From contig OZ244999.1 of the NCBI GenBank assembly GCA_965223265.1, forward strand, positions 5,504,001 to 5,568,000: 64,000 nucleotides of DNA. Reading direction: 5' to 3'. This document shows positions 698 through 19,719 of the stretch, piece by piece. The translations under genes were made by a program, and so were the position numbers. A model generated the notes under the pieces. The model searched no databases and was not told where the DNA came from. It was given only the letters and a program-made list of their open reading frames with translations. How positions within the stretch are numbered: the stretch's first letter is position 1; each line of letters starts with the position of its first letter. The DNA is from Planctomycetota bacterium. GTDB taxonomy: Bacteria; Planctomycetota; UBA8108; SXIK01.

Positions 698-765
698 GTT
701 TTTCTCCTCAAGCACTCTCATTGGCTCCCAGCGACCGCTCACAACGAAGGAGTGACTCCGGCCGC

Positions 766-1275
766 TCAGTATTTGCCGAAGATGTTACGCTTCTTTCCAG
801 TCGCGTCGAAGGTTGCGAGAAACGGCTCTTCACCTGCGTCGCTCAGTCCGAGCCCAAAGACGATGCGATCGCTGCCCGATCGATCTTTGAAGACGAGGAC
901 CGGCGATTCGTTGCGTCCGGCCAACCGCAAGAGCAGTCGAAGTCTCTCTTTGCCGTCGAATAAACCCATTAGAGGCAGCCCAGCCTCACCCCGAGCGACA
1001 CGGCCGGAGTAAGTTCCGAGCTGCAGCCGACGACCACCGCTTCGCGCGAAGAGTTCCAGCACCTTGCCAGGTGTCGCGATGGTGTCGTCCGTGACGCGCC
1101 GCTGTCGCAGGACTTTGAGAAAGGCCGCGACATCTGCTATGTCCCCAGGAGAGAGCTGTTCAGACTCCGTCGCAGCTTCAGTCCGTGGGGTTTGGCGACC
1201 CACGAAGCCTGACACGACACCGCCGGCGAATCCCCCGACGAGCGCCAGAGTCACAACCATGTAGCTACTTTTCAT
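766..1275 (-). CDS. Hypothetical exported or membrane-anchored protein with short beta-type repeats
   Basis: Start MKSSYMVVTLALVGG (hydrophobic N-terminus). Repeated L-x-x-x-D-x-x-G-x-x-R-like units in the C-terminal half. Overlaps the stop of the upstream gene. Confidence 0.6.
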   Translation of the reverse strand: MKSSYMVVTLALVGGFAGGVVSGFVGRQTPRTEAATESEQLSPGDIADVAAFLKVLRQRRVTDDTIATPGKVLELFARSGGRRLQLGTYSGRVARGEAGLPLMGLFDGKERLRLLLRLAGRNESPVLVFKDRSGSDRIVFGLGLSDAGEEPFLATFDATGKKRNIFGKY

Positions 1276-5100: not shown

Positions 5101-5982
5101 TCGATCCTCGAGCACGCGTGCCGCGAAGTAGAGAGCGTCACGCGCTTCAGTGGATTGTGGTCGCCGCTCGTGCAGTCGCAGATGCGAAGCGACGGCGTGG
5201 TCGTACTCGCCGATCGCTTCGAACATTCTCCCTAGCCAGAGCTGCGCCTCGGCAAAACTCGAGTCCTGTCGTAGTGCTTGGAGAAGCTCACCGATCGCTT
5301 CGGGATAACGCCCACGATCGTAGTGGTCCATAGCATGGTAGAACCGCTCGGTTGCCGGCATCGACGACGTCGGCGCGAAGCGAATGTTCCTCTCTTCCTC
5401 ATCCGTAAGAGCCACATGCTCTTCGCGCAAGAGAGTCACGGCGGCCTCAGCTACGAGCGAACGAAGCTCGCCGTAGCTTCCTGTCGTCTTCGAACGCCGT
5501 ACGATCTTCTGGTCCTTCAGATTGAGCAGCGAGACTGTCAGTGAGATCGTCTCACCGTCGAGTCGGTAGTCACCGAAGACGACCTGGTCGACTTTGGCGA
5601 CGCGACCGACGCGAAGAGCTCTCTCCTCGTCTGCGAGTGCGGAATCGCTAAGCGCCACCTCGTCGGTGAACGTCTGCATCCGTTCGCGGTCTAGAACGAC
5701 GATCGAAGCGGCCTGCGAAAAACTCTTGATGAGAAGATCCGCAATCGCCTTACTCAGCCACGTGTTTTTCGCGTGCTCGGCCAGAAGAGGACCAACCGTG
5801 AGTGTGCGCTGACTCTCAGTTGTCGGGATACTTTGAGGCGGCTGCGCCGTGTCGGAGAAGTTCACCACTGCGAGACGACGCGCCACCGGCTCCGTTGCCG
5901 GAGCAACCTGGGTCGCGACGTCGGCGCAGACGGGAGCGCAAATCAGCGCAGCCCACAACAGCTTCGTAGTGCTTTGGCGCAT
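2167..5982 (-). CDS. Large exported protein: CsgG/FlgO-like N-domain, TPR array, C-terminal beta-propeller repeats
   Basis: 1271 aa with signal peptide; VVLDRERMQ...ALRVGRVAKVDQVVFG; several TPR helices; propeller repeats (VTSLGIDPSGRIWWG, ILDIALDAQRALWVG, LVVEPDGRTVWIGT). Confidence 0.75.
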   Translation of the reverse strand: MRQSTTKLLWAALICAPVCADVATQVAPATEPVARRLAVVNFSDTAQPPQSIPTTESQRTLTVGPLLAEHAKNTWLSKAIADLLIKSFSQAASIVVLDRERMQTFTDEVALSDSALADEERALRVGRVAKVDQVVFGDYRLDGETISLTVSLLNLKDQKIVRRSKTTGSYGELRSLVAEAAVTLLREEHVALTDEEERNIRFAPTSSMPATERFYHAMDHYDRGRYPEAIGELLQALRQDSSFAEAQLWLGRMFEAIGEYDHAVASHLRLHERRPQSTEARDALYFAARVLEDRLGDDAEAIDVYRRLVKLRPTSPHTLEASFRLGRLLFSRGELVEAYRQFHTIDTFCSRARRDPERLRRSQGRASTFFGWEHALTLFRESIASMATIFRQLDPQTRSAEGLTAPRGVLVLSAADPTHVELRFDRTASLFDPEGEEPGWRERLYVVIVPRGHRATGVDLSVTGRLRVRRPYHSYAMRVLPFPLPRDHERRWFGAIFGQTARFTTLQKQISFHGEHQGVFAVQLAESQAEVRSWRLEVQLRPDDGLPSPRRDSERKSVKGFWEGQPLGSVDLPPPELVGSTRSRRESYYEPKKELDLIRHPRHGFFLVSADGQLDASPTELSLAQSQDGRRWSTFAPLEIDSQSEDYSPRWSLSEDGRLWLSWISTRRGRGWELWMASLERFAVKPLVHEHRSESGPRTLPSLAPRMRARGASQTRWSRPRRVPLERFVDAGMEERIHVPSQLLEYDILQDRRGQWILAYYSLAKRQVVVLKASSVFEWQVAASIVLKSPAYGISLAEDSSGVLRLCFLGTAGTVHLWSSVDAKRWQRRKFTIKFWNQSTLSTARAHRVRLFPLARGELLLLLSDNQYGLQFSHFHPDTDEPVLDLVTRAGLEPYAAAAALGGEFIVALKGDEHVDLRQYRKFNVSGEPIDKDTRNWPIYRETESDADGNVWTRIFAQARVRVSDVTSLGIDPSGRIWWGIESGVMYKDKDRFLATDVSQGFFHHFVTHITASRDGRVWFGSTHLPQPRLGSIHNPRSIDATLATGVPPRFHSTTVPQLSGAIADIEFGSTEGRISVGTTAGDVAEFDGRRVYGVRNVRAPVTALAYDAERRDLWVATDVGDLHVFNATTPDHSRRVRLPKVATGRRILDIALDAQRALWVGVSGTGMLRLNSVDRQPEWRHYTPNTSPVLYWSIGSLVPDPRSGVWYLPAAEERSVGLGYFDGVRHRVLNPPHEVLSQPSSLVVEPDGRTVWIGTWFNGLYQITPRREAP

Positions 5983-6025
5983 CGAGCTCAGCGAAATGGC
6001 GACAACCGCGAACGAACGACCGACA

Positions 6026-7039
6026 CTATTTGTCGAGGTCCTTTAGGATACGCAGCGCTGTTCGCTCGGCGATCTTGGCGGCGGCCTTCTGGATCGCAGT
6101 TTTCCCCGCGATCTGTTCCGAGACGTCGACCGCGACCTCAGTTTGGCGATCGACAGCGATGATTCTCCCTGTATCCCGTTCGATAGCCTTCACTTCGACG
6201 CGCCCCTTGCAGGAGACCAAGTTGCCCTTGCGCAGCGCGAACTCACTGAAAGCTTCTCCCGTTATTTCCACGTCGGGTTGTTTGACTGTGGTTTCGGCGT
6301 CAACCAGATCGAATCCGAGAGTTTGAAAGAGGAAACTGATTTCGGTCTCAGCGGCTGGATCGAGTGTTTCGGAGCGAATATGTCGTTCAGCGACGACAAC
6401 TGAGACTGTGGGAAGGTTCTTCCCTTCAACCATGATCTTCAGGCTTTCAAGCAAGCTCTCCTCTTTCGATGCGGCAGGGGCGACGAGTAACCGCCCCTTG
6501 TTTGCAATGGTTTTCGCGACTTTGTCTGCCAACTTGCGGCTGGCCTCTGCGTGAGACTTCCGAACGGAGAAGGATACGAATTCTCCGAAGACCTTACTGG
6601 TCTCAACGCCGACGATTTTTGCCGCGATATAGAGCTCATTCTGAACTGCGAAGATCCTCCCGGTAACAAGGATCTTCGCGCCGGTGATCTGTCCGATTTT
6701 CGCCGCTGTCTCATTCGACACCGTCCCTGAGAGACCCAGCTCCATCTCACTGACGATCTTGTCGAGCTCGTCTCGCTCGACGAGAGACATCCCGTCCGCA
6801 GCCGAGAGGTGCGTGACGATGAGCTGCGTGACCGGCGCCTCCAATTCCTTGAGTGGAGCGCTCGCAGCGTGAAACGGCAACACTGCAACGGAGGTCGCCG
6901 CGGCGGATGTATCGCTCTCGGATTCCTGCGTTGTGTTGAGTTCCTCTTCTGCAAACAACGCCGTTGGCGTCGCGATCGCGCACATCGCTGCGACAAACAT
7001 CACGGGGACGAGCAAGTGGGTTGGATCTTTGAGCTGCAT
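6026..7039 (-). CDS. CsgG/HfaB-family (curli assembly/transport-like) exported protein
   Basis: Signal peptide; VAVLPF...LVERDELDKIVSEMELGLSG...AAKIGQITGAKILVTG is the typical CsgG-family signature; a second alpha/beta domain follows. Confidence 0.8.
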   Translation of the reverse strand: MQLKDPTHLLVPVMFVAAMCAIATPTALFAEEELNTTQESESDTSAAATSVAVLPFHAASAPLKELEAPVTQLIVTHLSAADGMSLVERDELDKIVSEMELGLSGTVSNETAAKIGQITGAKILVTGRIFAVQNELYIAAKIVGVETSKVFGEFVSFSVRKSHAEASRKLADKVAKTIANKGRLLVAPAASKEESLLESLKIMVEGKNLPTVSVVVAERHIRSETLDPAAETEISFLFQTLGFDLVDAETTVKQPDVEITGEAFSEFALRKGNLVSCKGRVEVKAIERDTGRIIAVDRQTEVAVDVSEQIAGKTAIQKAAAKIAERTALRILKDLDK

Positions 7040-7054
7040 GCCTAAACCTCAGTT

Positions 7055-7915
7055 CTACGAGTCAAGAACGTTCGACATCTGAAAGATTTCCAGAAGCAAT
7101 TTGCTGGCGCGTGGATCGCTGTCTAAATCGTCAAGAAACTTCATATCGACGACCGTCGAAACCGACGCTTGCTCACGCGTGACGACAATTTTCGGAAAGG
7201 TGGTGAAACCTTCGTTCAAGACGATGACCGCGCCCCGCGAGCGCATAGTCCCCTGTGACAATGCGAGTTCTGACGGTGTCACGAGGACCGTCACTGCTGG
7301 GACGCGAGGATCGAGGGCGCCAGCCTTTAGGTCGACGACGCGGACGTCGCGCTCTGTCAGAAACCGAGCCAGTTTCCCGTTCGTGTCGAGGCGAAGATGG
7401 ACGCGCCTCGACCAGCGCGAGAGCGGTGCCAATAGATCGTCAGGGTAGACCCGGAGACGGGCGGTCTCGACGTCTTGCCAGGCGTCCTCGCGAGCTCGTT
7501 TCGCTTCGAGAGCAACCATAATCGTCGTCTCCGACTCGACGTCGGGGAGTGATACGACGACTTCCACGTCGCGGGGTTGGCCGCCCGCGAGAGGCTCGCG
7601 CGACAGGACAGTAACTCTGTCACCGATCGGTGCTGCCGTTGCGAACGTGGTCTGCAGCATCTGGAGCCGCACATCGACCACTTCGTCTGAAGAAGCCTCG
7701 AGCCTGACCGTCATCTTGACGTCGCGGCCGCCGAAGACGTGGCGTGCAGCACGGCCGACCGGCAACGGTGTCGCGCTCTTCGGCTGTGCCGGCAGCAGTG
7801 TGACCGTCACCGGAGCGACTACTTCCTCACTGTCGTCCTGAGCGGCGCTAGCAGCGGCAAGAAGACAAGGTAGGAGAAGACACGCGATCCCAAGCTCGTG
7901 CAGTTTCAAATCCAT
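7055..7915 (-). CDS. Hypothetical exported protein, first gene of the CsgG-like operon
   Basis: Likely start MDLKLHELGIACLLLPCLLAAASAAQ (signal peptide with AxA site), then a beta-rich Ig-like region; 15 bp from the next gene. Confidence 0.6.
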   Translation of the reverse strand: MDLKLHELGIACLLLPCLLAAASAAQDDSEEVVAPVTVTLLPAQPKSATPLPVGRAARHVFGGRDVKMTVRLEASSDEVVDVRLQMLQTTFATAAPIGDRVTVLSREPLAGGQPRDVEVVVSLPDVESETTIMVALEAKRAREDAWQDVETARLRVYPDDLLAPLSRWSRRVHLRLDTNGKLARFLTERDVRVVDLKAGALDPRVPAVTVLVTPSELALSQGTMRSRGAVIVLNEGFTTFPKIVVTREQASVSTVVDMKFLDDLDSDPRASKLLLEIFQMSNVLDS

Positions 7916-8100
7916 CGGCAGGCTCCCGGTCGGAGAAAGCGGTGTGGAAGTATACAACAGACGTGAACACGCCCCCGACTCACACGCGCGCGAGTTCCAA
8001 GAACTTCGACGTTGGAGGTTTATCGACTCACCGGTGCCTGGTAAAATTCGCGTTCTACCTGCCGCTGACTCGAATGAACGATTCCTGTACTTCTCGCCGG

Positions 8101-8117
8101 CTGGTGGAACCTTTGCG
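8101..8117 (+). promoter_or_regulatory. Possible sigma54-type -24/-12 element
   Basis: CTGGTGGAACCTTTGCG has GG-N10-GC spacing with TTGC, ~90 bp upstream of the likely ATG at 8206. The match to TGGCACG-N4-TTGC is only partial. Confidence 0.25.
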
Positions 8118-8205
8118 AAGAGCTCTGCGTTCGAAGAATGTTGGTCCAAATTTGACCAAACCAACCGCAGCGATCGAGTCGCCCAGGCTATGGAGACGGG
8201 AATGC

Positions 8206-11200
8206 ATGGGGCGTAAGCTTGCCTCGAACTTTCCAAAACGGCGCGCCGTTTTGTATTTCGTGGTCGCTCTGTTGTCGCGGCCGCTCGATGCGTTGGTGAT
8301 CTCCGAAATCCACTACAACCCGATCGAGGGTCGCCAGCTCGAATTCATCGAACTCACCAACGATGAGCCAACGCCTGAGGATGTTTCCGGGTGGTCGTTT
8401 ACTGAAGGTGTACGCTACACGTTCCCTCCTGGCACCGTCGTATTTGGCGGCGACGTTTTGGTGGTTTGCGCAGATGTTGAGTCCGTCCGTTCGACCTACG
8501 GGATCAACAACGTCGTTGGCAACTTCGACGGCCGCCTCGACGGCAGCGGCGAGCGTCTGACTCTCGTCAATCACGCCGGAGCCGTCATACAAAGCCTTCG
8601 ATACCAGACAGACGGCAAATGGCCTGTAGGCCCCGACGGCGGCGGACACTCCCTCATACTTCGAAGTTTGCACGTCGACACCTCAGAGCCTGAGAGCTGG
8701 ACCCAAAGTCCGGAGCTAGGCGGCAGTCCGGGATTCGTCAACGACCCCGAAGTTCGTATTCAATTCGATGAGGAGGTGCTGATCGAAATCGGCGACGAAT
8801 GGCGGTTTCGCAAAGGCACGTCTCCTTTCTCCGATCCAGAAAACGCGTGGCAGCTGCCCGAGTTCGACGACTCAGACTGGGAGATCGGCCCATCCGGCTT
8901 CGGGTTTTCGGACGACGATGATGCGACCGTCTGGGACGATATGCAGGGGCAGTACGTGTCGGGGGTTGTGCGCCGGACGTTTGAGCTCTCCGAGGAGCAG
9001 TTCGGCGAGCTCGACGCGGTGTTTCTCGACATCAATTTCGACGACGGCTTCTGCGCCTTCATTAACGGTGTCGAGTTCGCCCGCACGAATTGCCCAGAAG
9101 AGCCCTTGTGGAATGAAACAGCACGTGGGTTTCACGAAGCGACGTCGCGCGGCTTCGAGCTCCATGAAATGCAGCGCGAGGACCTCCGCGTGGGGACGAA
9201 CGTGCTCGCCATCATTGGATACAACCGCAGAGTGAACGACGGCGACTTCAGCCTGCTGCCGCGAGTTTTACATCGCCGTTCGATCGTTCCGCAGCTCGGC
9301 CCTACACGCGCGCTGTTTTTCAACGAGCTGTATCGTGGAAGCGAAGCTGAAGCCGGCTGGATCGAGATCTACAACGCTGAGAGTGTCGCCAGAGATCTCT
9401 CGGGTTGGAGCTTGGCAGCCGATCCCCAGCAACTCGAACGGTTCGTGTTCGGCGAAGGGAACGCAATTCCGGCGCTAGGATACCTCGTTGTCGACGCAAA
9501 CATCGCGAATGTCGCCCTGACCGCCAACGAACCGGTACAGCTATTCCTCTTCTCTCCGGATGGATTTGTTGGCGCGGCCGCAACCTTCGATCGGCTCGTT
9601 CCCGACGGGATGGCCCCTGAGCTCTTTTCTGAAGCGCGATTTCCCGACGGCAACGGGCGCAGCTGGCTCACGCCGACACGAACGCCGGGAGCGACCAACG
9701 ACGTCCCTCGCGTGACGGACGTCGTCATCAATGAAATCCACTATCATCCGCCGGAAGAGCGGGCTGGCGAGTTTCTCGAACTGTACAACCGTGGCCAGGC
9801 CGCTATTGATCTCAGCGGGTTTCGTTTCACAAGAGGCATCGACGTCACTTTCGCGGGCGGGACGGTTCTAGCACCCGGTGGTTACCTGGTGTTAGCAGAG
9901 GATCCAAGACTGTTACAGCAGACTTACGGCGTCGCCGGTGCCATCGAGTACGAAGGCACGCTTGCCAACGGCGGCGAAAACGTCCGACTTGTCGACACGC
10001 TTGGAAACCTTGTGGATGAAGTGAGGTACTTCGACGGTGGCACGTGGCCCCTATGGGCTGATGGGCGTGGATCAAGTCTGGAGTTGATCGACCCGCACCA
10101 AGACAATGACTTTGCCGCAGCATGGGAAGCGAGCGACGAGACCGGCAAGGCACCGTGGGAACAGCATTCGTTCCACGTGCCACGTCTCGGCAGCTCGAGT
10201 GAGACCGAACTGCAGATCATGCTTGCTGAGCGTGGCATCTGCCACATTGACGACGTCTCTATAACTGGCGACGCGTTCGTCGAATCGCCCCTCCTGCCGG
10301 CGGGCGCTGAGTGGCGGTTTCGCAAAGGTACCGGCCCGTTCTCTGATCCGGCCAACGCGTGGATGATGAGCGAGTTCGACGACTCATCGTGGGAGACTGC
10401 CGTTGCCGGGTTTGGATACGGCGATGAAGGTCTTGGAACGATTCTCGACGACATGCAAGAGAACTACAACACGCTTGCCATCCGAGCGCGCTTTGAAATG
10501 ACGCAGGAGCAGCTAAGCAACGAACGGCTCGAATTCTACTTCGGAATCTATTACGACGACGGATACTGCGCTTTCTTAAACGGCGAGCTACTCGATCGTC
10601 GCGGCTGTTCACGCAATCCGGCTTGGGATGACACCGCTCGCATTGGGCACGAGGCCGACGAGGAGATTACGATCCGAATTCCGGAGGAACGACTGCGAGT
10701 TGGAGAGAACGTCCTCGCAGTTCTCGGTGTCAATCGAGTCGCTCGCGTCGCCCCAGGATCCCCGGAATTCGCAGCCGACGACGATTTCACACTTCACCCA
10801 CGAGTCTTCGTGCTACGCCCCGAAGGGCGCAGCCAAAACCTCCTCGCCAACCCCGGTTTTGAGGAAGACACTGCGACGTGGCGATTTGAAGGGACCCACT
10901 CGCGTAGCCGCCGAGTGCAGGACGATGCAAACGGCGGCAGTGCATGTCTTGAGATGATCGCGACTGGGAAGGGCGACATGACATGCAATCGGATCGAGAC
11001 CGACACCGAGCCACGATTGACAGCTGACCGGCGGTACGACATCTCGCTGGCGACACGATGGGTGCGCGGCTCCAGCCTGCTCCTCGTGCATGGCACCTTT
11101 TCGCCAGGCGAGTGGCCTGGGACGCGCGACTCCAACCTCTCCGGCAACGAGATCGCACAAGCCATCCGCATGGCCATACCCGACGATCTCGGCACCCCCG

Positions 11201-13215
11201 GCGCTGAGAACAGTGTGCGTCGACTGCTGCGAGAGTTCACCGAAAACGGCAACCTCGGCCCGCTGATTGCTGATGTCGAACATGAACCGATTAATCCGAC
11301 GCCTGGTGCAACAGTAACGGTTCGCGCCCGTGTGGTCGACTCCGATGGCATCGGTAGCGTCCGCATCCTGTACCGTGAAGACATCGATTCAGAGGAACCG
11401 TTGGATTTTCTATCCATCGAGATGTCCGAAGTCGCCGGCAGCCGCGACCCGTTGACAGGCGTTGCTACCTACGAAGGCCAGATTCAGCCGATAGAAACGA
11501 GTCAAGTGATCTTCTTCGTCGAAGCAGAAGACGCGTTTGGCACGCAAGGCACTTTCCCGTTCGATGCTCCGGAGAAGACACTCGTCTATCGCTACGCGGA
11601 TCCGTTCCCACACCGGATTGAGGTTCTATTGCCCTTAGCGGAGTGGAGCGAGCTTCGCACGCGGAGACTCCACTCCAATGACTTGGTCGACGGAACAGTC
11701 ACCTACGCGGGCGAGCAAATCTTCTACAACGTGGGCGTACGCTATCGCGGCAGCCCGTGGGGACGTGGCACGCTCGAAAGTATTCGTGTTCGTTTCCCGG
11801 ACGATCGCCTCTACAAGGGAACGCGCCGCGACATCAACATTTCGAATCGCGACAGGACGGATGGTGCCGCGTACCCGGTCGTCGGCCGTAGTGGCAACCG
11901 TGACTCTCCGGTGCCAGTAGCGGACTACAAGTACGTCGCTACTCGGTTCAACGGACGATCGTTCGGTACGCCGGGTGTTTTCGAGCCGTATGATCGCACG
12001 CTCCTTGACAAATGGTATGGACGAGATGTCACGCGCGACGCGGTACTTCTCAAAAGCATCGGCCGACTTCTGTTCAGCGACGGGTGCTCCCGCACCGCTT
12101 GGGACGAAGCCACGATGGCGCATCGCAATGAGAACGCAGAGAACTACCGATTCTACTGGTTTCATAGCATTCATCAGACGCGCGACAACTGGCAACCATT
12201 CATCGACGCGACGCGAATAGCTGACGGACGCGTCACATCAGACGAGGACTTCGACGCGGAGTTCGAGAGCGTCATTGACGTAGAAACCTTTATTCGTGGG
12301 CTGATGCCACGAATCCTCATGTCCGATGGCGACGGACTCTTCGTCGGCAATGGGCACAACGGATATCTGTTCTGGGATCCGTCCGATGGTCGGTGGGAGT
12401 ACTTTCCGTTCGACATGGGCCTCGGATGGGGAGGCACACCGACAAGTCTATTCTCCGTTCGAGATCGTGTCGTGCGCAGGGTGCTCGCGCATCCCCGCTC
12501 ACAGCGTACGTACTACCGAGTGCTCAACGAGTACTTGAACAATTACTGGTCGGAAGAACGAGCCGGTCCCTTTCTCGATGCGCTGCAGGAGCAATCCAAC
12601 AGCGTAGGAACGCAGCAGAAGGCGTTCATACGAGCAAGCAATCCTCGTCTCTTTCGCCTCATAGAACCCTTCGTGAATGCGGAGCTGCGCATCTTGACGA
12701 ACCAGGGCGAAGACTTCAGCGTTGGCACGCCGACGGTCACGCTTTCTGGCGAAGCGTCGACCCTGATGACTCTATTCACCATTCGGCTGAACGGTGGTGC
12801 GCCGCAGGCGTTCGTGCCTGTGTGGACCTCGGCCCTTCAGTGGACGACGACCCTGCCCATGAGTGGCGACTCACTGATGGTTCAGATCGATGGATTCGGG
12901 GTGGACGGCGTTGCGCTGGGGAGCGCTGGAATCACCATTCGGCGGGGCCCGCTGCGCGAGTTCATCCGCGGTGACGTCAACGACGACAACTCGCTCAACA
13001 TCTCTGACGCGATCGAGGCGCTGCTGCATCTCTTTCGCGGTTTCCCGATTGCCTGCCCTGATGCTGCTGACTTCGATGACAGCGGCAACGTTGATCTCAG
13101 CGACGCACTTGGCGTATTGGGGTACGCGTTTCGAGACGGGGACCCACCGGCCTCTCCTTTCCCGGAGCGTGGCGTCGACATCACGGACGACCCGCTGGAG
13201 TGTCGGAGCGAGTAG
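8206..13215 (+). CDS. Secreted lamin-tail-domain (LTD) / CotH-kinase-like / dockerin-type surface protein
   Basis: Signal peptide; three LTD motifs (ISEIHYNP..EFIELTN, FFNELY..WIEIYN, INEIHYHP..EFLELYN); two copies of a WRFRKGTxPFSDPxNAW domain; CotH-like region (VGVRYRG...HNGYLFWD...WEYFPFDM); C-terminal FIRGDVNDDNSLNISD...DFDDSGNVDLSD EF-hand/dockerin. Start moved to the MGRKL ATG. Confidence 0.85.
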   Translation: MGRKLASNFPKRRAVLYFVVALLSRPLDALVISEIHYNPIEGRQLEFIELTNDEPTPEDVSGWSFTEGVRYTFPPGTVVFGGDVLVVCADVESVRSTYGINNVVGNFDGRLDGSGERLTLVNHAGAVIQSLRYQTDGKWPVGPDGGGHSLILRSLHVDTSEPESWTQSPELGGSPGFVNDPEVRIQFDEEVLIEIGDEWRFRKGTSPFSDPENAWQLPEFDDSDWEIGPSGFGFSDDDDATVWDDMQGQYVSGVVRRTFELSEEQFGELDAVFLDINFDDGFCAFINGVEFARTNCPEEPLWNETARGFHEATSRGFELHEMQREDLRVGTNVLAIIGYNRRVNDGDFSLLPRVLHRRSIVPQLGPTRALFFNELYRGSEAEAGWIEIYNAESVARDLSGWSLAADPQQLERFVFGEGNAIPALGYLVVDANIANVALTANEPVQLFLFSPDGFVGAAATFDRLVPDGMAPELFSEARFPDGNGRSWLTPTRTPGATNDVPRVTDVVINEIHYHPPEERAGEFLELYNRGQAAIDLSGFRFTRGIDVTFAGGTVLAPGGYLVLAEDPRLLQQTYGVAGAIEYEGTLANGGENVRLVDTLGNLVDEVRYFDGGTWPLWADGRGSSLELIDPHQDNDFAAAWEASDETGKAPWEQHSFHVPRLGSSSETELQIMLAERGICHIDDVSITGDAFVESPLLPAGAEWRFRKGTGPFSDPANAWMMSEFDDSSWETAVAGFGYGDEGLGTILDDMQENYNTLAIRARFEMTQEQLSNERLEFYFGIYYDDGYCAFLNGELLDRRGCSRNPAWDDTARIGHEADEEITIRIPEERLRVGENVLAVLGVNRVARVAPGSPEFAADDDFTLHPRVFVLRPEGRSQNLLANPGFEEDTATWRFEGTHSRSRRVQDDANGGSACLEMIATGKGDMTCNRIETDTEPRLTADRRYDISLATRWVRGSSLLLVHGTFSPGEWPGTRDSNLSGNEIAQAIRMAIPDDLGTPGAENSVRRLLREFTENGNLGPLIADVEHEPINPTPGATVTVRARVVDSDGIGSVRILYREDIDSEEPLDFLSIEMSEVAGSRDPLTGVATYEGQIQPIETSQVIFFVEAEDAFGTQGTFPFDAPEKTLVYRYADPFPHRIEVLLPLAEWSELRTRRLHSNDLVDGTVTYAGEQIFYNVGVRYRGSPWGRGTLESIRVRFPDDRLYKGTRRDINISNRDRTDGAAYPVVGRSGNRDSPVPVADYKYVATRFNGRSFGTPGVFEPYDRTLLDKWYGRDVTRDAVLLKSIGRLLFSDGCSRTAWDEATMAHRNENAENYRFYWFHSIHQTRDNWQPFIDATRIADGRVTSDEDFDAEFESVIDVETFIRGLMPRILMSDGDGLFVGNGHNGYLFWDPSDGRWEYFPFDMGLGWGGTPTSLFSVRDRVVRRVLAHPRSQRTYYRVLNEYLNNYWSEERAGPFLDALQEQSNSVGTQQKAFIRASNPRLFRLIEPFVNAELRILTNQGEDFSVGTPTVTLSGEASTLMTLFTIRLNGGAPQAFVPVWTSALQWTTTLPMSGDSLMVQIDGFGVDGVALGSAGITIRRGPLREFIRGDVNDDNSLNISDAIEALLHLFRGFPIACPDAADFDDSGNVDLSDALGVLGYAFRDGDPPASPFPERGVDITDDPLECRSE

Positions 13216-13506
13216 CCTCTTTCGTCGCCGCGCCGCGCAAGCCGCATGGACCAGGTAGTCGCGGACGCCGAGGACTTAGAGAGAACGCTTCGGCAAGAGA
13301 GTTTGGCCGTGCGTCGTTGACGCCAAGCTCGACCGCGTCGATACTCAACGGTCTTGCAGATGACGCGCGTTCGTGGTGGTCGAACTGGGCGCGGAGAGAC
13401 GAGTTTTCGGCTCGAAGCACGGATTCAAACGAGCCTGTCTAGCAATGGCTGAGTGGCCAGACCGAGGCGGCCTGGAGTTGCGGTCGGTCACGCATCAGAG
13501 GTGCGC

Positions 13507-13821
13507 ATGATTCTTACAAATGTCGAAAGCGTTCCGGGGCGATCTATCGTCCAGTCCTTCGGATTGGTGCAGGGCAGCACGATACGAGCGAAGCATGTGG
13601 GACGAGATCTCATGGCTGGGCTGAAGAATATCGTTGGTGGCGAGTTGTCCGGCTATACCGAGCTGTTGCGCGAATCGCGTAGGCAGGCGACGGACCGCAT
13701 GATTTCGGAGGCTCAAGATTTGGGCGCCAATGCGATCGTCAATGTTCGCTACTCCACTGCAGCGGTCACTCAGGGTGCGGCGGAAATTCTGGCGTACGGC
13801 ACGGCAGTTTTGGTGGAATAA
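13507..13821 (+). CDS. YbjQ/UPF0145 family (putative heavy-metal-binding) protein
   Basis: MILTNVESVPG...AKHVGRDLMAGLKNIVGGELSGYTELL...GANAIVNVRY...EILAYGTAV is the classic UPF0145 sequence. Confidence 0.92.
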   Translation: MILTNVESVPGRSIVQSFGLVQGSTIRAKHVGRDLMAGLKNIVGGELSGYTELLRESRRQATDRMISEAQDLGANAIVNVRYSTAAVTQGAAEILAYGTAVLVE

Positions 13822-13822
13822 G

Positions 13823-13868
13823 TGCTAAGTCCCACAGTATCTGGCGCGGAAATCCCAGATTAAATGGC
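13823..13868 (+). repeat. Left transposon end: terminal inverted repeat plus two 19-bp end motifs
   Basis: TGCTAAGTCCCACAGTATCTGGCGCG. Motifs AAGTCCCACAGTATCTGGC (13827-13845) and AAATCCCAGATTAAATGGC (13850-13868), period 23 bp. Confidence 0.85.
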
Positions 13869-13956
13869 ATGGTGCTGATTCGCGGGTGCGAGATGCGATT
13901 TGCGAGGCGAGAAGGCGCGGGTCGTCGTGTCCCGGACGGCACGACGACCCGGGGAA

Positions 13957-14274
13957 TCACGAAGGGCGAGGCGTGGCGCGAGCGTCACCGCGACGATCGC
14001 GGAGCTCGGCGAGGAACTCGACGGCGTCGACGAAATTCAGCCGCTTGACGATCATGACCAGGTCGATCGGGTTGAAGTTCGTCTCGCAGCGAAAGCAACG
14101 CGCGAGGTTGGTGGACGCCTTCGTCGCGGTGTTGAATTCGCGACACCGCGGACAGAGGAAGCGCACGTAGCCCTCGGAGATTTTCGCGGGGACGCCGAGC
14201 AGATCGAGGAGCCACGCGATCGGTATATCGTTTCTCAACGACCGCAGGAGCTTGCCGGAGAATCGTCCTGTCAT
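13957..14274 (-). CDS. Stand-alone primase-type (CHC2-like, here C4) zinc-finger protein
   Basis: LRNDIPIAWLL...FLCPRC...ARCFRCETNFNPIDLVMIVKRLNFVDAVEFL matches the DnaG zinc-binding-domain pattern (CFxC..G/NxIDLV...F.EAV..L). No TOPRIM domain follows. Confidence 0.75.
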   Translation of the reverse strand: MTGRFSGKLLRSLRNDIPIAWLLDLLGVPAKISEGYVRFLCPRCREFNTATKASTNLARCFRCETNFNPIDLVMIVKRLNFVDAVEFLAELRDRRGDARATPRPS

Positions 14275-14564
14275 GCGACGCCACCTCCACCGCTCGGCGC
14301 CTTCAAATATCGGATTCGTTGCAGGCTCTCGAGATACTCTTCGAGGACGATCTGGAGCGCTCGCAGCTGAGCGCCCAAGGCGGCGAGATAGGCGTCTTGC
14401 TCGGTGTAGGAGGAGCGTTGCGTGTAGTCGAAGTCGAGATCGGGGTACGCGGCGTTCAGAGCGAACAGGGCGATCTCGAGGTTCGTCGCGAGGGTCATCA
14501 AAACGGCGAGCTCAGGATACTCGGCGAAGTCGTTGACTCGAGGCATCAGGGTCTTGTGGAACAT
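14271..14564 (-). CDS. Small helical hypothetical protein (transposon gene 4)
   Basis: 97 aa, GGAG upstream of the start, ATGA overlap with the downstream gene, operonic position. Confidence 0.65.
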   Translation of the reverse strand: MFHKTLMPRVNDFAEYPELAVLMTLATNLEIALFALNAAYPDLDFDYTQRSSYTEQDAYLAALGAQLRALQIVLEEYLESLQRIRYLKAPSGGGGVA

Positions 14565-14583
14565 GGCGCGTCAGTCTCCGTTC

Positions 14584-15375
14584 TCAGGGCAGATGGAACT
14601 CGGGGGCGGTGTCGTTGACGAGCGCCTCGGAGATCTTCTGGACGTTCTTGCTCGCGGCCTGAATGAGGCAGGCGGTGGCGATGTTGTTGATGCGCCGCGG
14701 CACGCCGCTTGAGTAGTCGTGGATGAGCGACTTCGCTTCAGGCTCGAAGACTTTCTGCGAGGCGCCGGCTGCGCGCATCTGAAAGTCGATGTACTCGACC
14801 GTCTGCTCCTTGCTGAGCGGCGGCACGTGGTAGCGCACGCTGAGCCGATGCGTGAGATCGGCGTGGCGCGCTCGGGTAAGCTCCTTTCTCAGGGTCTCTT
14901 GTCCGCTGAGGAGGATCTTCAATGGCGGGCCGTCCTCGAGTCCGGAGCTGACCAGAAGTCTCAGATCGGTGAGCGACTCCGAAGGAAGCAGGTGCGCTTC
15001 ATCGATGACGAGGATTGTCGTGTGCTCGTTCGCCCCGACGCGATCCAGGATCTGGAGGAAGAGCCGCTCCTTGCCACGGCGGGGCTGCTCGCCGAGGCTG
15101 GAAACCAGGAGCTTCAGAATGCCGTTTGCCCCGACGTAGGTCAGCGAGAGATAGATCGGGTCGTAGAGGTTGCGGCTCAGCGAGCGCACGAAGAGCTTCA
15201 CCAGAGACGACTTCCCCACCCCGGTGAGTCCGGTCACCAGGCCGATCGAGCCCGACTTGGCGAGGTACTCCAGTCGAGCGAGTCCCTGGGTGATGCGCTC
15301 GTCGGAAAGAATCTGCTCGACGGGCGCGCGCTCGAGAAAGGGCTGCGTCGTCATCTTGAAATGGGTGGTGAACAT
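14584..15375 (-). CDS. ExeA/TnsC/MuB-like AAA+ ATPase (transposition regulator)
   Basis: Start MFTTHFKM; Walker A GLTGVGKS; Walker B ILVIDEAH; ILLSGQ; SSGVPRRINN. TGATG coupling to the transposase stop. Confidence 0.9.
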   Translation of the reverse strand: MFTTHFKMTTQPFLERAPVEQILSDERITQGLARLEYLAKSGSIGLVTGLTGVGKSSLVKLFVRSLSRNLYDPIYLSLTYVGANGILKLLVSSLGEQPRRGKERLFLQILDRVGANEHTTILVIDEAHLLPSESLTDLRLLVSSGLEDGPPLKILLSGQETLRKELTRARHADLTHRLSVRYHVPPLSKEQTVEYIDFQMRAAGASQKVFEPEAKSLIHDYSSGVPRRINNIATACLIQAASKNVQKISEALVNDTAPEFHLP

Positions 15376-16937
15376 CAGTCCTCCTTTCTGCCTGCGAGTC
15401 GTTGAAGCTCGTAGGCGATGTAGGGAATGGATTTCTCCGGAGCCTTCTCGAAGGCCCTCAGCAAGAGGACTTCGGTGAGGCTGGGAGTACGGTTGTAGAA
15501 CTTCTTGAGTTCCTCGAGCTCCTCGGCGGTGAAGCTCGAGAGGGCGCCCTTGCGCCCCATGAGCCGGCCGAGAAGGCATGCGAAGTCGGTGAAGGGCCAC
15601 TGGCGAGAGGCGATGACACGACGGTAGTCGATCCCCTGGGCGCGCTTCTTGAGCTCCTCGTCGTGCTCACGGCGAAGAAGCTCCAGATAGTTGTGCTTCG
15701 CTTTGGCGGGAGGGGCGGGAGCACCGGCGTCCTCGCCCTCTTCGCGCTCGTGAAGGACGCCCTTTCCGAGGTACTCTTCGTTGCTGGAGTAGATGAGAAC
15801 CGTGTCGGGCGCGGAGAAGGGATCGTAGCGGACTTCGACCTTGTCACCGCGCAGACTCTTGTCGACGCGATAGAAGCGGCGATCGAGCTGGACGTCGGAG
15901 AAGTCCGGGTGAACGCGCCGCGTCTCGCGGCACATGAAGAACTCGGTGACGCGCTGAATGTCGACGTGTCGGATAGGCCGTTTGAGGCCGGCCTCGGCTC
16001 GTGCCTCGGGTGTTTCGCCGGTCTCGGTGTTGACCTGGCGGTGGTAGGCCACGGTCTTCCAGGAATCGAAGCTTCCGTTGAGCGAGTCGAGAGTGAGGAT
16101 CTCGCCGGCTCTGACCTCGGCCTCGAACTGGCCCTGTATCGTCTCGATGAGTCGTTCGACGAGACCACCCGGTGGCGGATCGCCCTTGCCGCGATGGATG
16201 AGCCGGGTGACAACGGCAAGGCATGCCGCCTTGAGCGCTTTGGAGATATAGACCTTCGCCTGATCGACATAGAGCTCGTCCGAAGCGCCGTGCTTGGCCC
16301 ACGCCCGCAGCAAGCAGTCGATCAAGACCTCGAGATTTTGCCGAAGGTAGTAGCGCCCCTCGACGAGCGAGCGGCTGTAGCAGTCGATGAGAACACAGAG
16401 GAAGGTGGGGACGACTTCGCCGTCGTGCAGCACGTAGGGTCCATCGGCGAAGTCGCCGACCCAGAGGGCATGGGTGGAGTCACGAGTCCAGCGTTTCCGG
16501 ACTTTCCTCCTCTCGACACCGAGCTTCAGCCGCGTCGCGCCGGCGATCTTGAGGTAGCGGAAGAGGGTCGAACGCGGAATGGTCTTTCCGTGCTGAGCCT
16601 GGAGGAACTTGTTGATGGCGAAGTGGGAGCGCAGTGGCTGATCACGCTTCAGCTCGACGGCTTTCTCGACGAGCTCTTTGCCGTGGGCACGCGGTTTCCC
16701 GCGATCGCTTCGCGGCCTGCGGGCAAGACCCTCGAAGCCCTCCTCGCGATAGATGCGAAGCTTCCGCCTCAGGGTCGAAAGAGCCGGCTTGCGTCGCGAT
16801 CCGTCGGGAAAGATGCGCTCTTCTTTGGCGAGCTCGCGGAGAAATCGCGCGGCTTCCTCCTCCGGCACCTCGCCGATGACGACGGGCTGGAGAAGAGCCG
16901 CCCAGAAGATAGCCCAATCGAGATCTTTCGCTTTCAT
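15375..16937 (-). CDS. DDE transposase/integrase (rve core, Mu-transposase C-terminal-like, N-terminal HTH)
   Basis: Start MKAKDLDW after GAGGTG; HTH-like STLRRKLRIYREEGFEGL and IPRSTLFRYL; catalytic WVGD, LYVDQ and GLVERL; C-terminal GDKVEVRYDP. Confidence 0.9.
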   Translation of the reverse strand: MKAKDLDWAIFWAALLQPVVIGEVPEEEAARFLRELAKEERIFPDGSRRKPALSTLRRKLRIYREEGFEGLARRPRSDRGKPRAHGKELVEKAVELKRDQPLRSHFAINKFLQAQHGKTIPRSTLFRYLKIAGATRLKLGVERRKVRKRWTRDSTHALWVGDFADGPYVLHDGEVVPTFLCVLIDCYSRSLVEGRYYLRQNLEVLIDCLLRAWAKHGASDELYVDQAKVYISKALKAACLAVVTRLIHRGKGDPPPGGLVERLIETIQGQFEAEVRAGEILTLDSLNGSFDSWKTVAYHRQVNTETGETPEARAEAGLKRPIRHVDIQRVTEFFMCRETRRVHPDFSDVQLDRRFYRVDKSLRGDKVEVRYDPFSAPDTVLIYSSNEEYLGKGVLHEREEGEDAGAPAPPAKAKHNYLELLRREHDEELKKRAQGIDYRRVIASRQWPFTDFACLLGRLMGRKGALSSFTAEELEELKKFYNRTPSLTEVLLLRAFEKAPEKSIPYIAYELQRLAGRKED

Positions 16938-16977
16938 GATCACACCTCGCATGGGGCGAGCGAGGCGTGATTCTCGC

Positions 16978-17646
16978 TCACGCCCAGGCTGCGGAGGTTG
17001 CCAAGTCGGGGAAGATCGATCGGCCGAAGAGGGAACGGAACACCTGGTCGATCGAGAGAGCTCGAAGTGCCGCGACGAGAGTGTCCCGCCGTGATTCGCT
17101 TCGGTACTTGGCTGGACGGACGGCGAAGACCTTGCGGAAGATGTCGGACCTCGCCGAGCGCTCTCGGATGAGGCGGAGAGCCTCCAGGAGCGTGGCGTTG
17201 AGAGAGCGAAAGAACGAAAGCCAACGATGAAGTGTTGAGTGCGCGAGGCTGCGCTCGTCGATCGCTCCCCTGTCGTCACCCTCGTGGAAGACGGGCATGT
17301 GTTCGACCTTGACGGCTTCGCGATACGAAAGCTCGTCGATCTGGAGGTAGCGCCGAGCGTGATCGAAAACGCAGTCGCGAACGTAGCGTTTCCCCGGCAG
17401 CGCGAAGGGCGGGTAGAGCGTGAAGGAGCGCTTACACAGAGGACACTTCCAGCGACTCAGAAGCGACAGGACAGGTTCGACCAGACGCCTGACGATAACG
17501 AGGAACACGCGCTCTCGGTGACCGCGGTAGCGGAACCGATCTGGCTCCCCGCTGCAATTCGGGCAGCGGTTACAGGTCGGCTGGATCTCACGGCGGCGAA
17601 CAGCTTCGCCATAGCTCTGTATCGCGTTGACCAAATGGGGTAGCAT
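16978..17646 (-). CDS. Zn-ribbon + HTH protein (DUF6431-like), first gene of the transposon
   Basis: CPNC...RWKCPLCKRSFTLYPPFALPGKRY zinc ribbon; LSYREAV...LAHSTLHRWL HTH-like region; GGAGAG upstream of the ATG. Confidence 0.7.
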   Translation of the reverse strand: MLPHLVNAIQSYGEAVRRREIQPTCNRCPNCSGEPDRFRYRGHRERVFLVIVRRLVEPVLSLLSRWKCPLCKRSFTLYPPFALPGKRYVRDCVFDHARRYLQIDELSYREAVKVEHMPVFHEGDDRGAIDERSLAHSTLHRWLSFFRSLNATLLEALRLIRERSARSDIFRKVFAVRPAKYRSESRRDTLVAALRALSIDQVFRSLFGRSIFPDLATSAAWA

Positions 17647-17831
17647 CGCTCTCTCCGTACGGGGACTTGCGGAGAGAAGTGCACCAACACCGGTCTCTCC
17701 GCTCCCCTCTTTACTCGAGGTGAGGCGAGGAGTCGAGCGAAGGTCCAGGGCGCAGCGTCGAACGGGGGGCGCGGGGTAGGCGGGGTATGATCGGACGGTC
17801 GGTTCGGCGGGGTATGCCGGGGCGTTTCCGG

Positions 17832-17887
17832 GTCAGTGAATCTGAGACTCGTCGCTGCTCACGAGCCAGAGTTTGTGGGACTCAGCA
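17832..17887 (-). repeat. Right transposon end: terminal inverted repeat plus two 19-bp end motifs
   Basis: Reverse complement reads TGCTGAGTCCCACAAACTCTGGCTCG. Motifs GAGTCCCACAAACTCTGGC (17883-17865) and GAGTCTCAGATTCACTGAC (17850-17832), period 33 bp. Confidence 0.85.
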
Positions 17888-17903
17888 AATAAGGGAGCTC
17901 ACG

Positions 17904-18365
17904 ATGACAATGTTCCAGATCCTCGTGAACCTATGGCCTGTGCATCTGCTCGTGCTGGCTTGGTTTACCGGCCGGATGCTCGAGCGCCATCACTACCAAA
18001 GTATTCAGGACCGCGAGATGGAGTCGGCGGAACGGCCCGCGACATCGATGCGATCGCTGCCGCTGGAGCGGTGTGCAGGGACGACCGATCTGGCTGTGGG
18101 CTCAGTGGTCATTTCCGTCGATCACTTCAAGCGTTTCCTCGGCTCTTGGCGCAAGATCTTCGGCGGCGAACTTCGGGCGCATGTTTCGGTGATCGATCGC
18201 GGCCGGCGCGAGGCGATCCTCAGGATGAAGGAATCTCACCCCGACGCAGACATGTTCATCAACCTGCGGCTTTACACGTCGTCGATCGTCAACCGGCGTC
18301 AGAACGCCAGTTCGGCTGTTGAGGTCGTCGCGGTCGCGACGGCGATTCGTTTCGAGCGATCGTGA
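17904..18365 (+). CDS. YbjQ/UPF0145 family protein with N-terminal membrane anchor
   Basis: GSVVISVDHFKRFLGSWRKIFGGELRAHVSVIDRGRREAILRMKE is the typical second gene of ybjQ pairs; SD TAAGGGAG upstream. Confidence 0.85.
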   Translation: MTMFQILVNLWPVHLLVLAWFTGRMLERHHYQSIQDREMESAERPATSMRSLPLERCAGTTDLAVGSVVISVDHFKRFLGSWRKIFGGELRAHVSVIDRGRREAILRMKESHPDADMFINLRLYTSSIVNRRQNASSAVEVVAVATAIRFERS

Positions 18366-18454
18366 TCCTGCCCTCTTCCGTCCCACCCCAGGGTCGTCCC
18401 TCCGCGTCGTCCGCTCCCAGGGTTGTCAGCCGAGCAGCCGAGCCGAAGCGGATA

Positions 18455-18475
18455 GCCGATCGCCGATCGCCGATC
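18455..18475 (+). repeat. Heptamer tandem repeat (GCCGATC)x3
   Basis: Directly visible, preceded by degenerate AGCCG units. Confidence 0.7.
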
Positions 18476-18807
18476 GTCGGTTCCCCAGGATTCGCTCGCG
18501 GCTCGCGCTTTCGCCTTTCATCAAGCGTTTCCCTTGTCAGGATCCCGTCGCAGCGGCCCAGCTAGTCAGTCGACCTAATGCGCCTATACAGAGTGCCCTT
18601 AGTTTGTTCTGTTTCGAAGGTTGCGACGGCATCTGCGTCGCTTCCGCTACACTGTCCGAATCCGGACGTCCGATTTTGACATCCGACCACCGACGACCGA
18701 AAGGGTTTCGTCGCGGCAGGCAGGAAGCACGCACGATGAGAACGACTTACGCACAATTCTGCGCGTACCGCAGTTCGTGGAACGCGGTTTGCCCAGAAGT
18801 GCCGCTG

Positions 18808-19719
18808 ATGACAGCCCCACGACAAGTTATCCCCGGAACTACTTACATGGTCACGAGACGCTGCTCACAGCGTCAATTCCTCCTTCGCCCTTCGAAAGAG
18901 GTGAACCAAGTCTTTCTTTATCTTCTCGCCTACTCCTCAAACCGCTTTTCCGTGGACGTCCATGCATACTGTGTTCTGAGCAATCACTACCACTTGATCG
19001 TTACAGACCGCCTCGGCAATCTGCCGGCGTTCATGCAACTCTTGAATTGTCTAGTTGCACGAGCCTTAAACGCTTACTATCGACGCTCGGAAAATATGTG
19101 GTCCCCTGGCTCTTACAACGCGGTAGCGCTCGTGGGAGAAGAAGACGTGATCGACAAGCTCATTTATGTCCTATCCAATCCGGTTGAAGCAGGTTTGGTC
19201 TCGCATGGTGAGCATTGGCCCGGGCTTCGTTCGTCGCCGCGCGACTTCGGAAGCCATCGTGCGGTAGAACAACCGTCCTTCTTTTTTCAACCCGACGGCG
19301 ACGCGCCTGATAGGGCAATCCTGAGTATTTCTTCGCCGCCGCGCCACGAGGGTTCCTCAGAAGACGAATTCATGAATTCGATTGAGGAAAAGCTCGACGC
19401 GAGGGAAGCCGAACTCCGAATTCGACAAACACGAAAGGGAAGAGAATTCCTCGGAGCCAAATCTGTCCTGAAGCAAAGCATCCAGACGCAAGCACGGAGT
19501 ACAGACGCCGGTTCTCGGAGAAAACAAATAGTTCCTCGGTTCGCCTGTCGAGAAAAGCAGAAGCGCGTCGAAGCGCTTGCCAGATATCGGCAATTTCTTA
19601 GAGAGTACCGCGACGCGCTCAGAGATTTCTGCGGAGGTCTACGGAACGTTGTATTTCCATACGGAACGTACTGGATGCGCGTTCAATTTGCGGTCCAATG
19701 CGCGTCGATGCCGCCGTAG
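18808..19719 (+). CDS. REP-associated tyrosine transposase (RAYT, Y1 HUH endonuclease, IS200/IS605 TnpA superfamily)
   Basis: MTAPRQVIPGTTYMVTRRC; HUH motif HAYCVLSNHYHLIV; YVLSNPVEAGLV..W motif with the catalytic Tyr. Visibly more AT-rich than the flanks. Confidence 0.9.
   Translation: MTAPRQVIPGTTYMVTRRCSQRQFLLRPSKEVNQVFLYLLAYSSNRFSVDVHAYCVLSNHYHLIVTDRLGNLPAFMQLLNCLVARALNAYYRRSENMWSPGSYNAVALVGEEDVIDKLIYVLSNPVEAGLVSHGEHWPGLRSSPRDFGSHRAVEQPSFFFQPDGDAPDRAILSISSPPRHEGSSEDEFMNSIEEKLDAREAELRIRQTRKGREFLGAKSVLKQSIQTQARSTDAGSRRKQIVPRFACREKQKRVEALARYRQFLREYRDALRDFCGGLRNVVFPYGTYWMRVQFAVQCASMPP

Follow-up and report, generated by a model that had tools for sequence, protein, structure and literature searches.

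A recently spread 4-kb transposon of a Planctomycetota bacterium probably represents a widespread, unnamed lineage of DDE transposase and AAA+ ATPase elements

What kind of mobile element occupies a 4-kb interval in the genome of a Planctomycetota bacterium (GenBank assembly GCA_965223265.1), and do the small genes beside its transposase and ATPase genes belong to it? The interval lies in the stretch of DNA analysed here, 64,000 nucleotides of contig OZ244999.1 (positions 5,504,001–5,568,000, forward strand; hereafter the window, whose coordinates are used throughout), and an original prediction made from the sequence alone had described it as a precisely bounded five-gene transposon. Our analysis indicates that it is probably an insertion-sequence-like transposon from a widespread, unnamed lineage of the Mu/Tn7/Tn552 superfamily, which is defined by a DDE transposase and an AAA+ ATPase; as part of the same reading, the element is probably autonomous and currently or very recently active. 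This reading is carried by exact boundaries, ten genomic copies with their own target-site duplications, an empty site in a related genome, a core of genes A, B, C and E, and intact DDE and Walker motifs.

The element measures 4065 bp and all its genes lie on the minus strand. The left terminus at 13823 reads TGCTAAGT... (opening TGCTAAGTCCCACA) and the right terminus at 17887 reads ...ACTCAGCA (closing ...GGGACTCAGCA; TGTGGGACTCAGCA), giving TG...CA ends, which a repeat finder paired as terminal inverted repeats of 26 nt with 81% complementarity (21/26). These ends, the inverted repeats and a flanking AATAAG duplication are all present in the sequence as originally predicted, as are the four 19-bp motifs that had been proposed, two per end at spacings of 23 and 33 bp: the window contains four exact matches to RARTCYCASA-N5-TGRC (at 13827 and 13850 on the plus strand and at 17850 and 17883 on the minus strand). 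With 0.06 matches expected, four were reached in 0 of 100 shuffles, in a test that is post hoc in that the consensus was built from the same four sites; the 10-bp core of the motif alone gave 5 matches versus 2.1 expected and was not significant. The 19-bp repeats are independently backed because relatives carry two GTC(C/T)CA-containing repeats at each end, the second lying ~24 bp inside each end in relatives of four other species. By analogy with the end architecture of Tn7, Tn552 and Mu, these repeats are presumed to be transposase-binding sites.

The host genome (9.18 Mb in one contig, 60.8% G+C) contains 10 full matches that span element positions 1–4065, none of which extends past them. 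A perfect 6-bp direct repeat flanks every copy (10/10), and all ten repeats are different. Compared with the window copy, eight of the others have one different base, at element position 2465, and the ninth is identical, leaving one variable site in 4065 bp among the ten copies, and all five reading frames are intact in the window element. In four of four short-read runs, which come from one study, were available as contigs, showed no joints and are not independent of the assembly, the element formed a single 4065/4066-nt contig with exact ends, at a depth of 23–122 compared with 2–11.5 in the flanks (roughly 6–23 times), and the majority base at 16287 was that of eight of the ten copies. Because the copies differ by one nucleotide in 4065 bp, their spread was very recent, and the description of a compact, recently active element is upheld by ten near-identical copies that each have their own target duplication.

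The window copy separates two YbjQ-family genes (13453–13821 and 17904–18365, both on the plus strand), having inserted at the stop codon of the first. In G401, a genome of the same taxonomic family, two YbjQ-type genes are adjacent with a few bases between them, and the distance between anchors is 194 nt, compared with 199 nt here after subtraction of the element and one duplication; the adjacent pair and its matching spacing therefore identify an empty site. Together, the full-length copies, their duplications, this uninterrupted site and the sequencing contigs establish the boundaries of the element beyond chance. Since only a few bases separate the two genes in G401, the insertion probably breaks a YbjQ operon. 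The second YbjQ gene encodes a hydrophobic-looking N-terminus, as judged by eye.

The choice of target seems close to random: the ten sites share only a weak A/T-rich centre, eight of the ten duplications having A at position 4, and long open reading frames (ORFs), including frames of 1260 and 905 aa, were hit several times. Site-specific targeting was considered and rejected, as the ten sites are unrelated in sequence, are both genic and intergenic and have no common neighbour. A strict orientation rule of the TnsE kind is also unsupported, the orientation being 7:3.

The five genes run in the order A-B-C-D-E (Table 1), with B/C and D/E overlapping by ATGA and with gaps of 40 nt between A and B and 19 nt between C and D. 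The proposed operon of five co-oriented genes stands, with one correction: the most likely start of the transposase is 16937 (MKAKDLDW...) and not 16940, because of a conserved MxxKxxxW N-terminus and an upstream GAGG motif. Transposase B consists of an N-terminal helix-turn-helix (HTH) region, an rve core with the DDE residues, a Mu-transposase C-terminal barrel and a C-terminal extension of ~90 residues that is absent from the more distant relatives L016 and L017. The DDE triad (D163, D226 and E262, in the numbering of a 521-aa query with one extra N-terminal residue) is invariant in 42 sequences, and a profile of these 42 sequences matched, among solved structures, TnsB of a type V-K CRISPR-associated transposon (CAST) best (1e-18, residues 50–395), with further matches to other TnsB proteins, retroviral integrases and IS21 IstA (3e-6). 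In ATPase C, the Walker A (G50–K56) and Walker B (D126–E127) residues are invariant in the family. The ATPase profile (39 sequences) matched the MuB structure 8xvb best (1.5e-9), and also ShTnsC (4.8e-6) and VchTnsC (4.6e-4), while hhalign aligned C with phage Mu B at 96.6% probability (E 6.2e-10) over 234 of 264 columns. The element thus combines a transposase of the TnsB/IS481-like kind with an ATPase that resembles MuB.

Comparison with curated insertion sequences raises the question of whether the element is a member of IS481 or IS21 in which A, D and E are passenger cargo. NCBIfam insertion-sequence models, which derive from ISfinder and served here as its proxy, place IS481 as the best match of transposase B (7.9e-30); IS21 elements likewise combine a DDE transposase and an AAA+ helper with TG...CA ends and repeated terminal motifs, and gene D, found in 1 of 60 distinct relatives, looks optional. 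However, the IS481 match reaches 104.3 bits against a cut-off of 224, the transpos_IS21 model 21.8 against 160, and the IS21_help_AAA (IstB helper) model 13.2 on ATPase C against 200. That no curated NCBIfam insertion-sequence model attains its cut-off agrees with the earlier description of a poorly described family, and plasmid relatives carry from NCBI only the generic name 'DDE-type integrase/transposase/recombinase' for their transposase. In addition, the ATPase resembles MuB over nearly its full length rather than IstB, the transposase has a Mu-type C-terminal barrel, and A and E, unlike passenger genes, keep their order and position in different phyla. IS481 elements are ~1 kb long with a single gene and no ATPase, whereas the window element has 4065 bp, five genes, the Mu-type barrel and the C-terminal extension. 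IS21 is closer in plan, being a compact insertion sequence with a DDE transposase (IstA) and a dedicated AAA+ helper (IstB), and E-like zinc-finger genes also follow IstB genes, but the window element has two extra conserved genes. Membership of either curated family is thus very unlikely.

How widely the gene set recurs was assessed with two peptide patterns of the transposase, applied to a collection with a single genome for each prokaryote species; 145 stretches matched, 129 of them encoding relatives. The best 80 of these 129 (49–61% identity) were kept and correspond to 60 distinct elements, a sample that is conditional on the transposase patterns. Gene A is present in 57 of the 60 (including 53/53 with at least 700 nt upstream), gene C in 58, both exceptions being cut contigs, and gene E in 52 of the 55 that have room after C; L046, L051 and L070 have no E gene. 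The contig of L051, which is one 4446-bp element, has an unrelated 95-aa ORF after the ATPase gene. The family core therefore consists of the four genes A-B-C-E, conserved across many phyla. The earlier picture of a five-gene family is accurate for the window element and too large by one gene for the family; conservation of accessory genes beside homologous transposases holds for A and E and fails for the 97-aa gene D. Neither of the two outcomes named in advance as overturning the original prediction was obtained. According to record titles, the hosts include Planctomycetota, Thermodesulfobacteriota (among them the isolate Desulfoferrobacter suflitae), Oligoflexia, Anaerolineae, Victivallales, Cloacimonadaceae, Acidobacteriia and others, together with one archaeal bin in which a binning error is possible.

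Relatives are multi-copy in four other genomes, with element lengths of 3693–4321 bp, and in four other species the termini follow the pattern T(G/C)CTA(A/C)GTC(C/T)CA. The two ends differ consistently in L038–L044 and L058–L067, from three species: the gene-A-proximal terminus opens with TCC in place of TGC, and TGC...GCA is retained at the opposite terminus. In relatives, 30 copies could be compared at both ends and flanks: a perfect 6-bp duplication borders 16 of them, a further 3 fit 7 bp, and 11 have none by a strict test. Such copies without a matching duplication would suit an element that is dead, or a repeat dispersed through recombination or segmental duplication, and so would the copies in G132 with a broken transposase frame. 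Against this explanation, all ten copies in the host genome have different perfect 6-bp duplications, the five frames are intact, the single nucleotide difference in 4065 bp points to very recent spread, and homology ends exactly at the inverted repeats; we regard it as extremely improbable. In G132, a related genome, all three copies examined share a +1 frame break in the transposase that lies outside any slippery run (L032, G132:C1:80000-92000, 5353–6913, near 5795–5805), and trans-mobilisation, recoding or gene conversion are possible explanations.

Beyond these relatives, distant loci (26–35% transposase identity) contain both B and C in 17 of 21 cases, most of the others being short or broken contigs, and A or E is detectable in some of them (E in L014, L025 and L028). 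The order DUF6431-DDE-AAA is annotated on plasmids of Streptomyces and Cupriavidus, and was found by profile in Thermobacillus. The window element has the hallmarks of this unit (gene order A-B-C and multiple copies) and those of a zinc-finger subgroup, with a DnaG-type gene of ~95–120 aa after the ATPase gene, the termini and the 6-bp duplication. The pairing of a DDE transposase with an AAA+ ATPase is itself of a known kind. A preprint reports 15 copies of a trio of DUF6431, DDE transposase and AAA ATPase in Clostridium sp. JS66 (bioRxiv 10.64898/2026.08.16.744336). The cassettes of this strain, Streptomyces and Cupriavidus share the A-B-C order and are multi-copy, but they are distant, with transposases ~30% identical, and most have no primase-type zinc-finger gene. 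DUF6431 was found in two papers, both mentioning it incidentally, and the literature searches, which otherwise returned only Tn7, CAST and IS21 work, gave no analysis of DUF6431 cassettes as a transposon family. The lineage with two zinc cofactors is accordingly new to the literature searched, while an existing ISfinder or TnCentral entry is possible, the comparison having been made via NCBIfam models.

The two zinc-binding proteins of the core are of different kinds. For A, the DUF6431 model is matched by 31 of 32 family members (best 2.8e-9), an ISL3 transposase zinc-ribbon model is also touched by 8 of the 32, and two CxxC pairs are conserved. The A profile gave no match below E 0.48 among solved structures, and no longer, fused forms of A were found, which is weak evidence. 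A is most likely a DNA-binding partner of the transposase or of the element ends.

Protein E corresponds to a stand-alone DnaG-primase-type zinc-binding domain, with a CxxC-15-CxxC zinc site whose cysteines (C41, C44, C60 and C63) are invariant. Its structure model (pLDDT 88) matched the zinc-binding domain of Bacillus DnaG best (1d0q_A; E 3.1e-4, TM 0.64/0.66, 91 columns). In a large protein collection, 1314 of 1319 candidates matched E, typically at 60–88% identity, and many of these matches lie on contigs of ~4.0–4.5 kb, as is typical of a repeat assembled into a contig of its own. The host genome has three more E-like genes (48–65% identity): one directly follows a full IstB-type ATPase gene (207 bits against a cut-off of 200), a second follows an IstB fragment and a third follows an AAA_25 ATPase gene beside three tandem tyrosine recombinases. 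An E-like gene also follows an IstB gene in G377 (L130, G377:C19). In a sample of the phylum, E-like genes occur at E≤1e-8 in 15 of 401 genomes, the weakest being true primases of ~600 aa, and a C-type ATPase gene lies directly upstream in 6 of 15 non-primase E-like loci examined outside the host genome (G000) and G132. Since E repeatedly lies beside a mobile-element ATPase that binds DNA and forms oligomers, we infer that E belongs to the ATPase or target side of the reaction. Complex prediction for C and E gave a score of 0.30 against a mark of 0.32, which speaks neither for nor against binding. That E is a target or DNA-structure adaptor of the ATPase is a tentative assignment, close to an even chance; a link to the primosome or replication is distinctly less probable, and a regulatory role is doubtful.

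E-like genes after IstB-type ATPase genes were located in L124 (G000:C1:2462000-2481500; 10406–11480) and L125 (G000:C1:805000-813000; 4071–4762). In L124, an ORF upstream of the full IstB gene (9250–10377, 375 aa) has no family match, and the IstB region may be an unrecognised three-gene IS21-like element. Further along (11774–16809), three tandem tyrosine-recombinase genes, which we take to resemble a 'recombinase in trio' element, are followed by the AAA_25 ATPase gene and an E-like zinc-finger gene, and a large serine recombinase is encoded upstream on the minus strand (6234–8309).

Gene D stands apart from this core. Family models and the Protein Atlas assigned D to no family (best Protein Atlas score 0.79), and a word-indexed search gave 3 matches including D itself. 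Its description as an orphan does not strictly hold, since 19 cluster representatives among 1.84 billion match at E≤1e-3; the matches are ~86–119 aa long and have in common the motifs PELA...L(x)A(x)YPDL...AYA...Q..AL...EY. A metagenome scan with the D family returned one locus among 88 pattern matches. D thus represents a small, real and narrow family, and its protein is expected to be helical. Besides the 1 of 60 distinct relatives, D occurs on one metagenome contig (L115), a closer relative of the window element with the order A-B-C-D-E and identities of 64% (A), 74% (B), 90.5% (C), 52% (D) and 71% (E); L117 has the same scores and was not counted separately. In L035 the order is A-B-C-E-D, so the position of D varies. 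Because of this variable position and its rarity among relatives, D is a movable, lineage-specific addition outside the family core.

The structural matches of B and C raise a further alternative, a reduced Tn7-like or Tn5053-like transposon whose A or E protein would be a divergent, site-directing selector of the TniQ/TnsD type. Tn7-like, Tn5053 and type V-K CAST elements have in common with the window element a DDE transposase with HTH, rve and Mu-type barrel, and the closest solved relative of B, ShCAST TnsB, places B among TnsB-type transposases at the superfamily level only. The AAA+ partner is related to TnsC, although MuB scores better, and arrays of ~20-bp transposase-binding repeats at TG...CA ends are shared. 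Tn5053 and V-K elements have no TnsA, like the window element. TniQ proteins are zinc-binding partners of TnsC, and the E gene follows the ATPase gene. Yet Pfam detected no TnsA, TniQ, resolvase or phage domain in the five proteins at E≤0.1, in line with the earlier statement that TnsA, TniQ/TnsD, resolvase and phage genes are not recognisable, and no TniQ or TnsA match was found in 32 A-family members at E≤0.01. The window element also has no CRISPR module and is ~4 kb long, its duplication is 6 bp (10/10 copies; 6–7 bp in relatives) and not 5 bp, and DUF6431 and the primase-type zinc-binding domain occupy the accessory slots. The ten insertions are dispersed, genic and intergenic, without a common sequence or neighbour. 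Benler 2021 (PMC8649781) describes repeat arrays at Tn7-like, Tn552 and Mu-type ends and reports cargo in 96% of Tn7-like elements, whereas the window element has none. This origin is therefore judged unlikely.

Two other members of the superfamily offer comparisons. Phage Mu shares the Mu-transposase C-terminal domain and TG...CA ends, and the window ATPase is of the MuB type by the alignment given above; by contrast, the window element has no phage genes and a 6-bp rather than a 5-bp duplication, and no internal enhancer as in phage Mu was identified in it. Tn552 of Staphylococcus (p480 transposase, p271 ATPase and BinL resolvase) has a transposase and an ATPase of similar size and subterminal repeat arrays, and differs in its resolvase, res site and resistance cargo. 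The Tn552 duplication of 6–7 bp matches the 6 bp found here and the 6–7 bp in relatives, while its inverted repeats are long compared with 26 bp in the window element.

Several observations weigh against our reading of the element as an autonomous, active transposon of an unnamed Mu/Tn7/Tn552-type lineage. Its transposition chemistry is extrapolated from the named homologues, and the match of B to phage Mu MuA is weak (hhalign 26.5%). The structure model of A is poor (pLDDT 57), which makes any assignment of its fold and role tentative. A promoter scan, which covered sigma-70-like sites and no other promoter types, found none. The G132 element is present at least 11 times despite its frame break (the E gene is identical 11 times). 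Nothing about the ten targets points to a selector protein, and there is no significant replication bias, the genes being co-directional with the fork in 7 of 10 copies (origin ~7.95 Mb and terminus ~3.55 Mb, as read from the minimum and maximum of cumulative GC skew). Finally, one relative has two copies ~2.9 kb apart, which argues against strong target immunity there, a property expected of MuB/TnsC-type ATPases.

A mechanism can be proposed on the basis of work on IS21 (PMC11208146) and end architecture (PMC8649781), and of what is established for Mu and Tn7. Transposase B would use its N-terminal HTH region to bind the two 19-bp repeats of either end, would pair the ends and nick at the terminal CA-3', and would then join the 3'-OH ends to target DNA across a stagger of 6 bp (occasionally 7 bp). 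ATPase C, in its ATP-bound form on the target DNA, would capture the target, recruit B and activate it, probably via the family-specific C-terminal extension of B. The model for this step is the activation of MuA by MuB and of TnsB by TnsC. Because there is neither a second nuclease of the TnsA type nor a resolvase, the strand-transfer product would probably be completed by host replication or repair, in a Mu-like nick-join pathway and not by double-strand excision. A and E would act as DNA-binding cofactors, A (DUF6431) most likely as a partner of the transposase or the ends and E most likely with the ATPase on DNA, as a target or DNA-structure adaptor or a replication link; D would be a dispensable, lineage-specific modulator or passenger. 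The earlier suggestion that small proteins may replace target selection or replication coupling stays conjectural, the ten insertion sites giving neither a strong sequence preference nor a significant orientation bias.

A bolder reading can be drawn at the level of the class, and we consider it rather unlikely as a whole. It would make the family a distinct, widespread, minimal class of insertion sequences within the Mu/Tn7 superfamily, in which two zinc proteins replace TniQ, TnsD and TnsE. E would be a general partner of MuB-like and IstB-like ATPases that couples target capture to the DNA structure of the replication fork or primosome (single-stranded template or primer-template junctions may serve as examples) and recruits host replication for the resolvase-less nick-join product, and DUF6431 would be a trans-acting, DNA-binding transposase subunit.

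Coordinates of the features are collected in Table 1. The hairpin next to gene E may be a transcript-end or stability element, and the repeats with GGCGGGGTATG core in the leader of gene A are possible regulatory, operator or cofactor sites. A terminator scan gave a single terminator-like site, inside gene D, fewer than in shuffled sequences.

Table 1. Features of the transposon and its flanks (window coordinates)
Feature	Position	Strand	Basis or remark
Target-site duplication AATAAG, left copy	13817–13822		Includes TAA stop of upstream YbjQ gene
Target-site duplication AATAAG, right copy	17888–17893		Sequence and copy comparison
Whole element, 4065 bp	13823–17887	-	10 genomic copies; 4065/4066-nt contigs; empty site in G401
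Terminal inverted repeat, gene-E-distal end	13823–13848		Repeat finder; terminus kept in relatives
Terminal inverted repeat, gene-A-proximal end	17862–17887		Repeat finder
Two 19-bp subterminal repeats (13827–13845, 13850–13868), spacing 23	13827–13868	+	Presumed transposase-binding sites
Two 19-bp subterminal repeats (17832–17850, 17865–17883), spacing 33	17832–17883	-	Gene-A-proximal end
Hairpin with 12-bp perfect stem, just 3' of gene E stop	13918–13951	-	Fold z-score -3.15; no U-tract
Gene E, 105 aa, stand-alone DnaG-primase-type zinc-binding domain	13957–14274	-	Zn_ribbon_DnaG 1.5e-4
Gene D, 97 aa, without family assignment	14271–14564	-	Lineage-specific add-on, confined to close relatives
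Gene C, 264 aa, MuB/TnsC-type AAA+ ATPase	14584–15378	-	AAA_22 at 1.7e-17
Gene B, 520 aa, DDE transposase	15375–16937	-	HTH_32, rve and Mu-transpos_C domains
Gene A, 222 aa, DUF6431 zinc-ribbon protein	16978–17646	-	C28, C31, C68, C71; helical C-terminal half
Two direct repeats, GGCGGGGTATG core, spacing 27	17774–17816		241-nt leader upstream of gene A

Two neighbouring features lie outside the element. Just upstream, 7942–13215 (plus strand) encodes a protein of 1757 aa that combines a CotH kinase domain with three lamin-tail domains. On the other side, an ORF at 18319–19719 (plus strand) has a weak match to an IS200-like Y1 transposase (E 0.0018, below the cut-off) and ~73%-identical DNA copies at four other places in the genome; it may belong to the REP-associated tyrosine transposase family.

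Regulated transposition is best understood in systems that combine a transposase with an AAA+ ATPase, such as Mu, Tn7, CASTs and IS21, and programmable DNA-insertion tools are built on them. The element described here is a natural and very compact member of this superfamily, with ~4 kb, four core genes and short ends, and its family is common in environmental bacteria of many phyla and has two conserved zinc-binding cofactors. Annotation pipelines label the family only generically, and it fragments metagenome assemblies, because many relatives stand alone on contigs of ~4 kb. DUF6431 could gain a function from work on the family, and the role of a free primase zinc-binding domain beside an ATPase of the MuB or IstB type, once worked out, could bring to light a novel mode of target choice or target processing.

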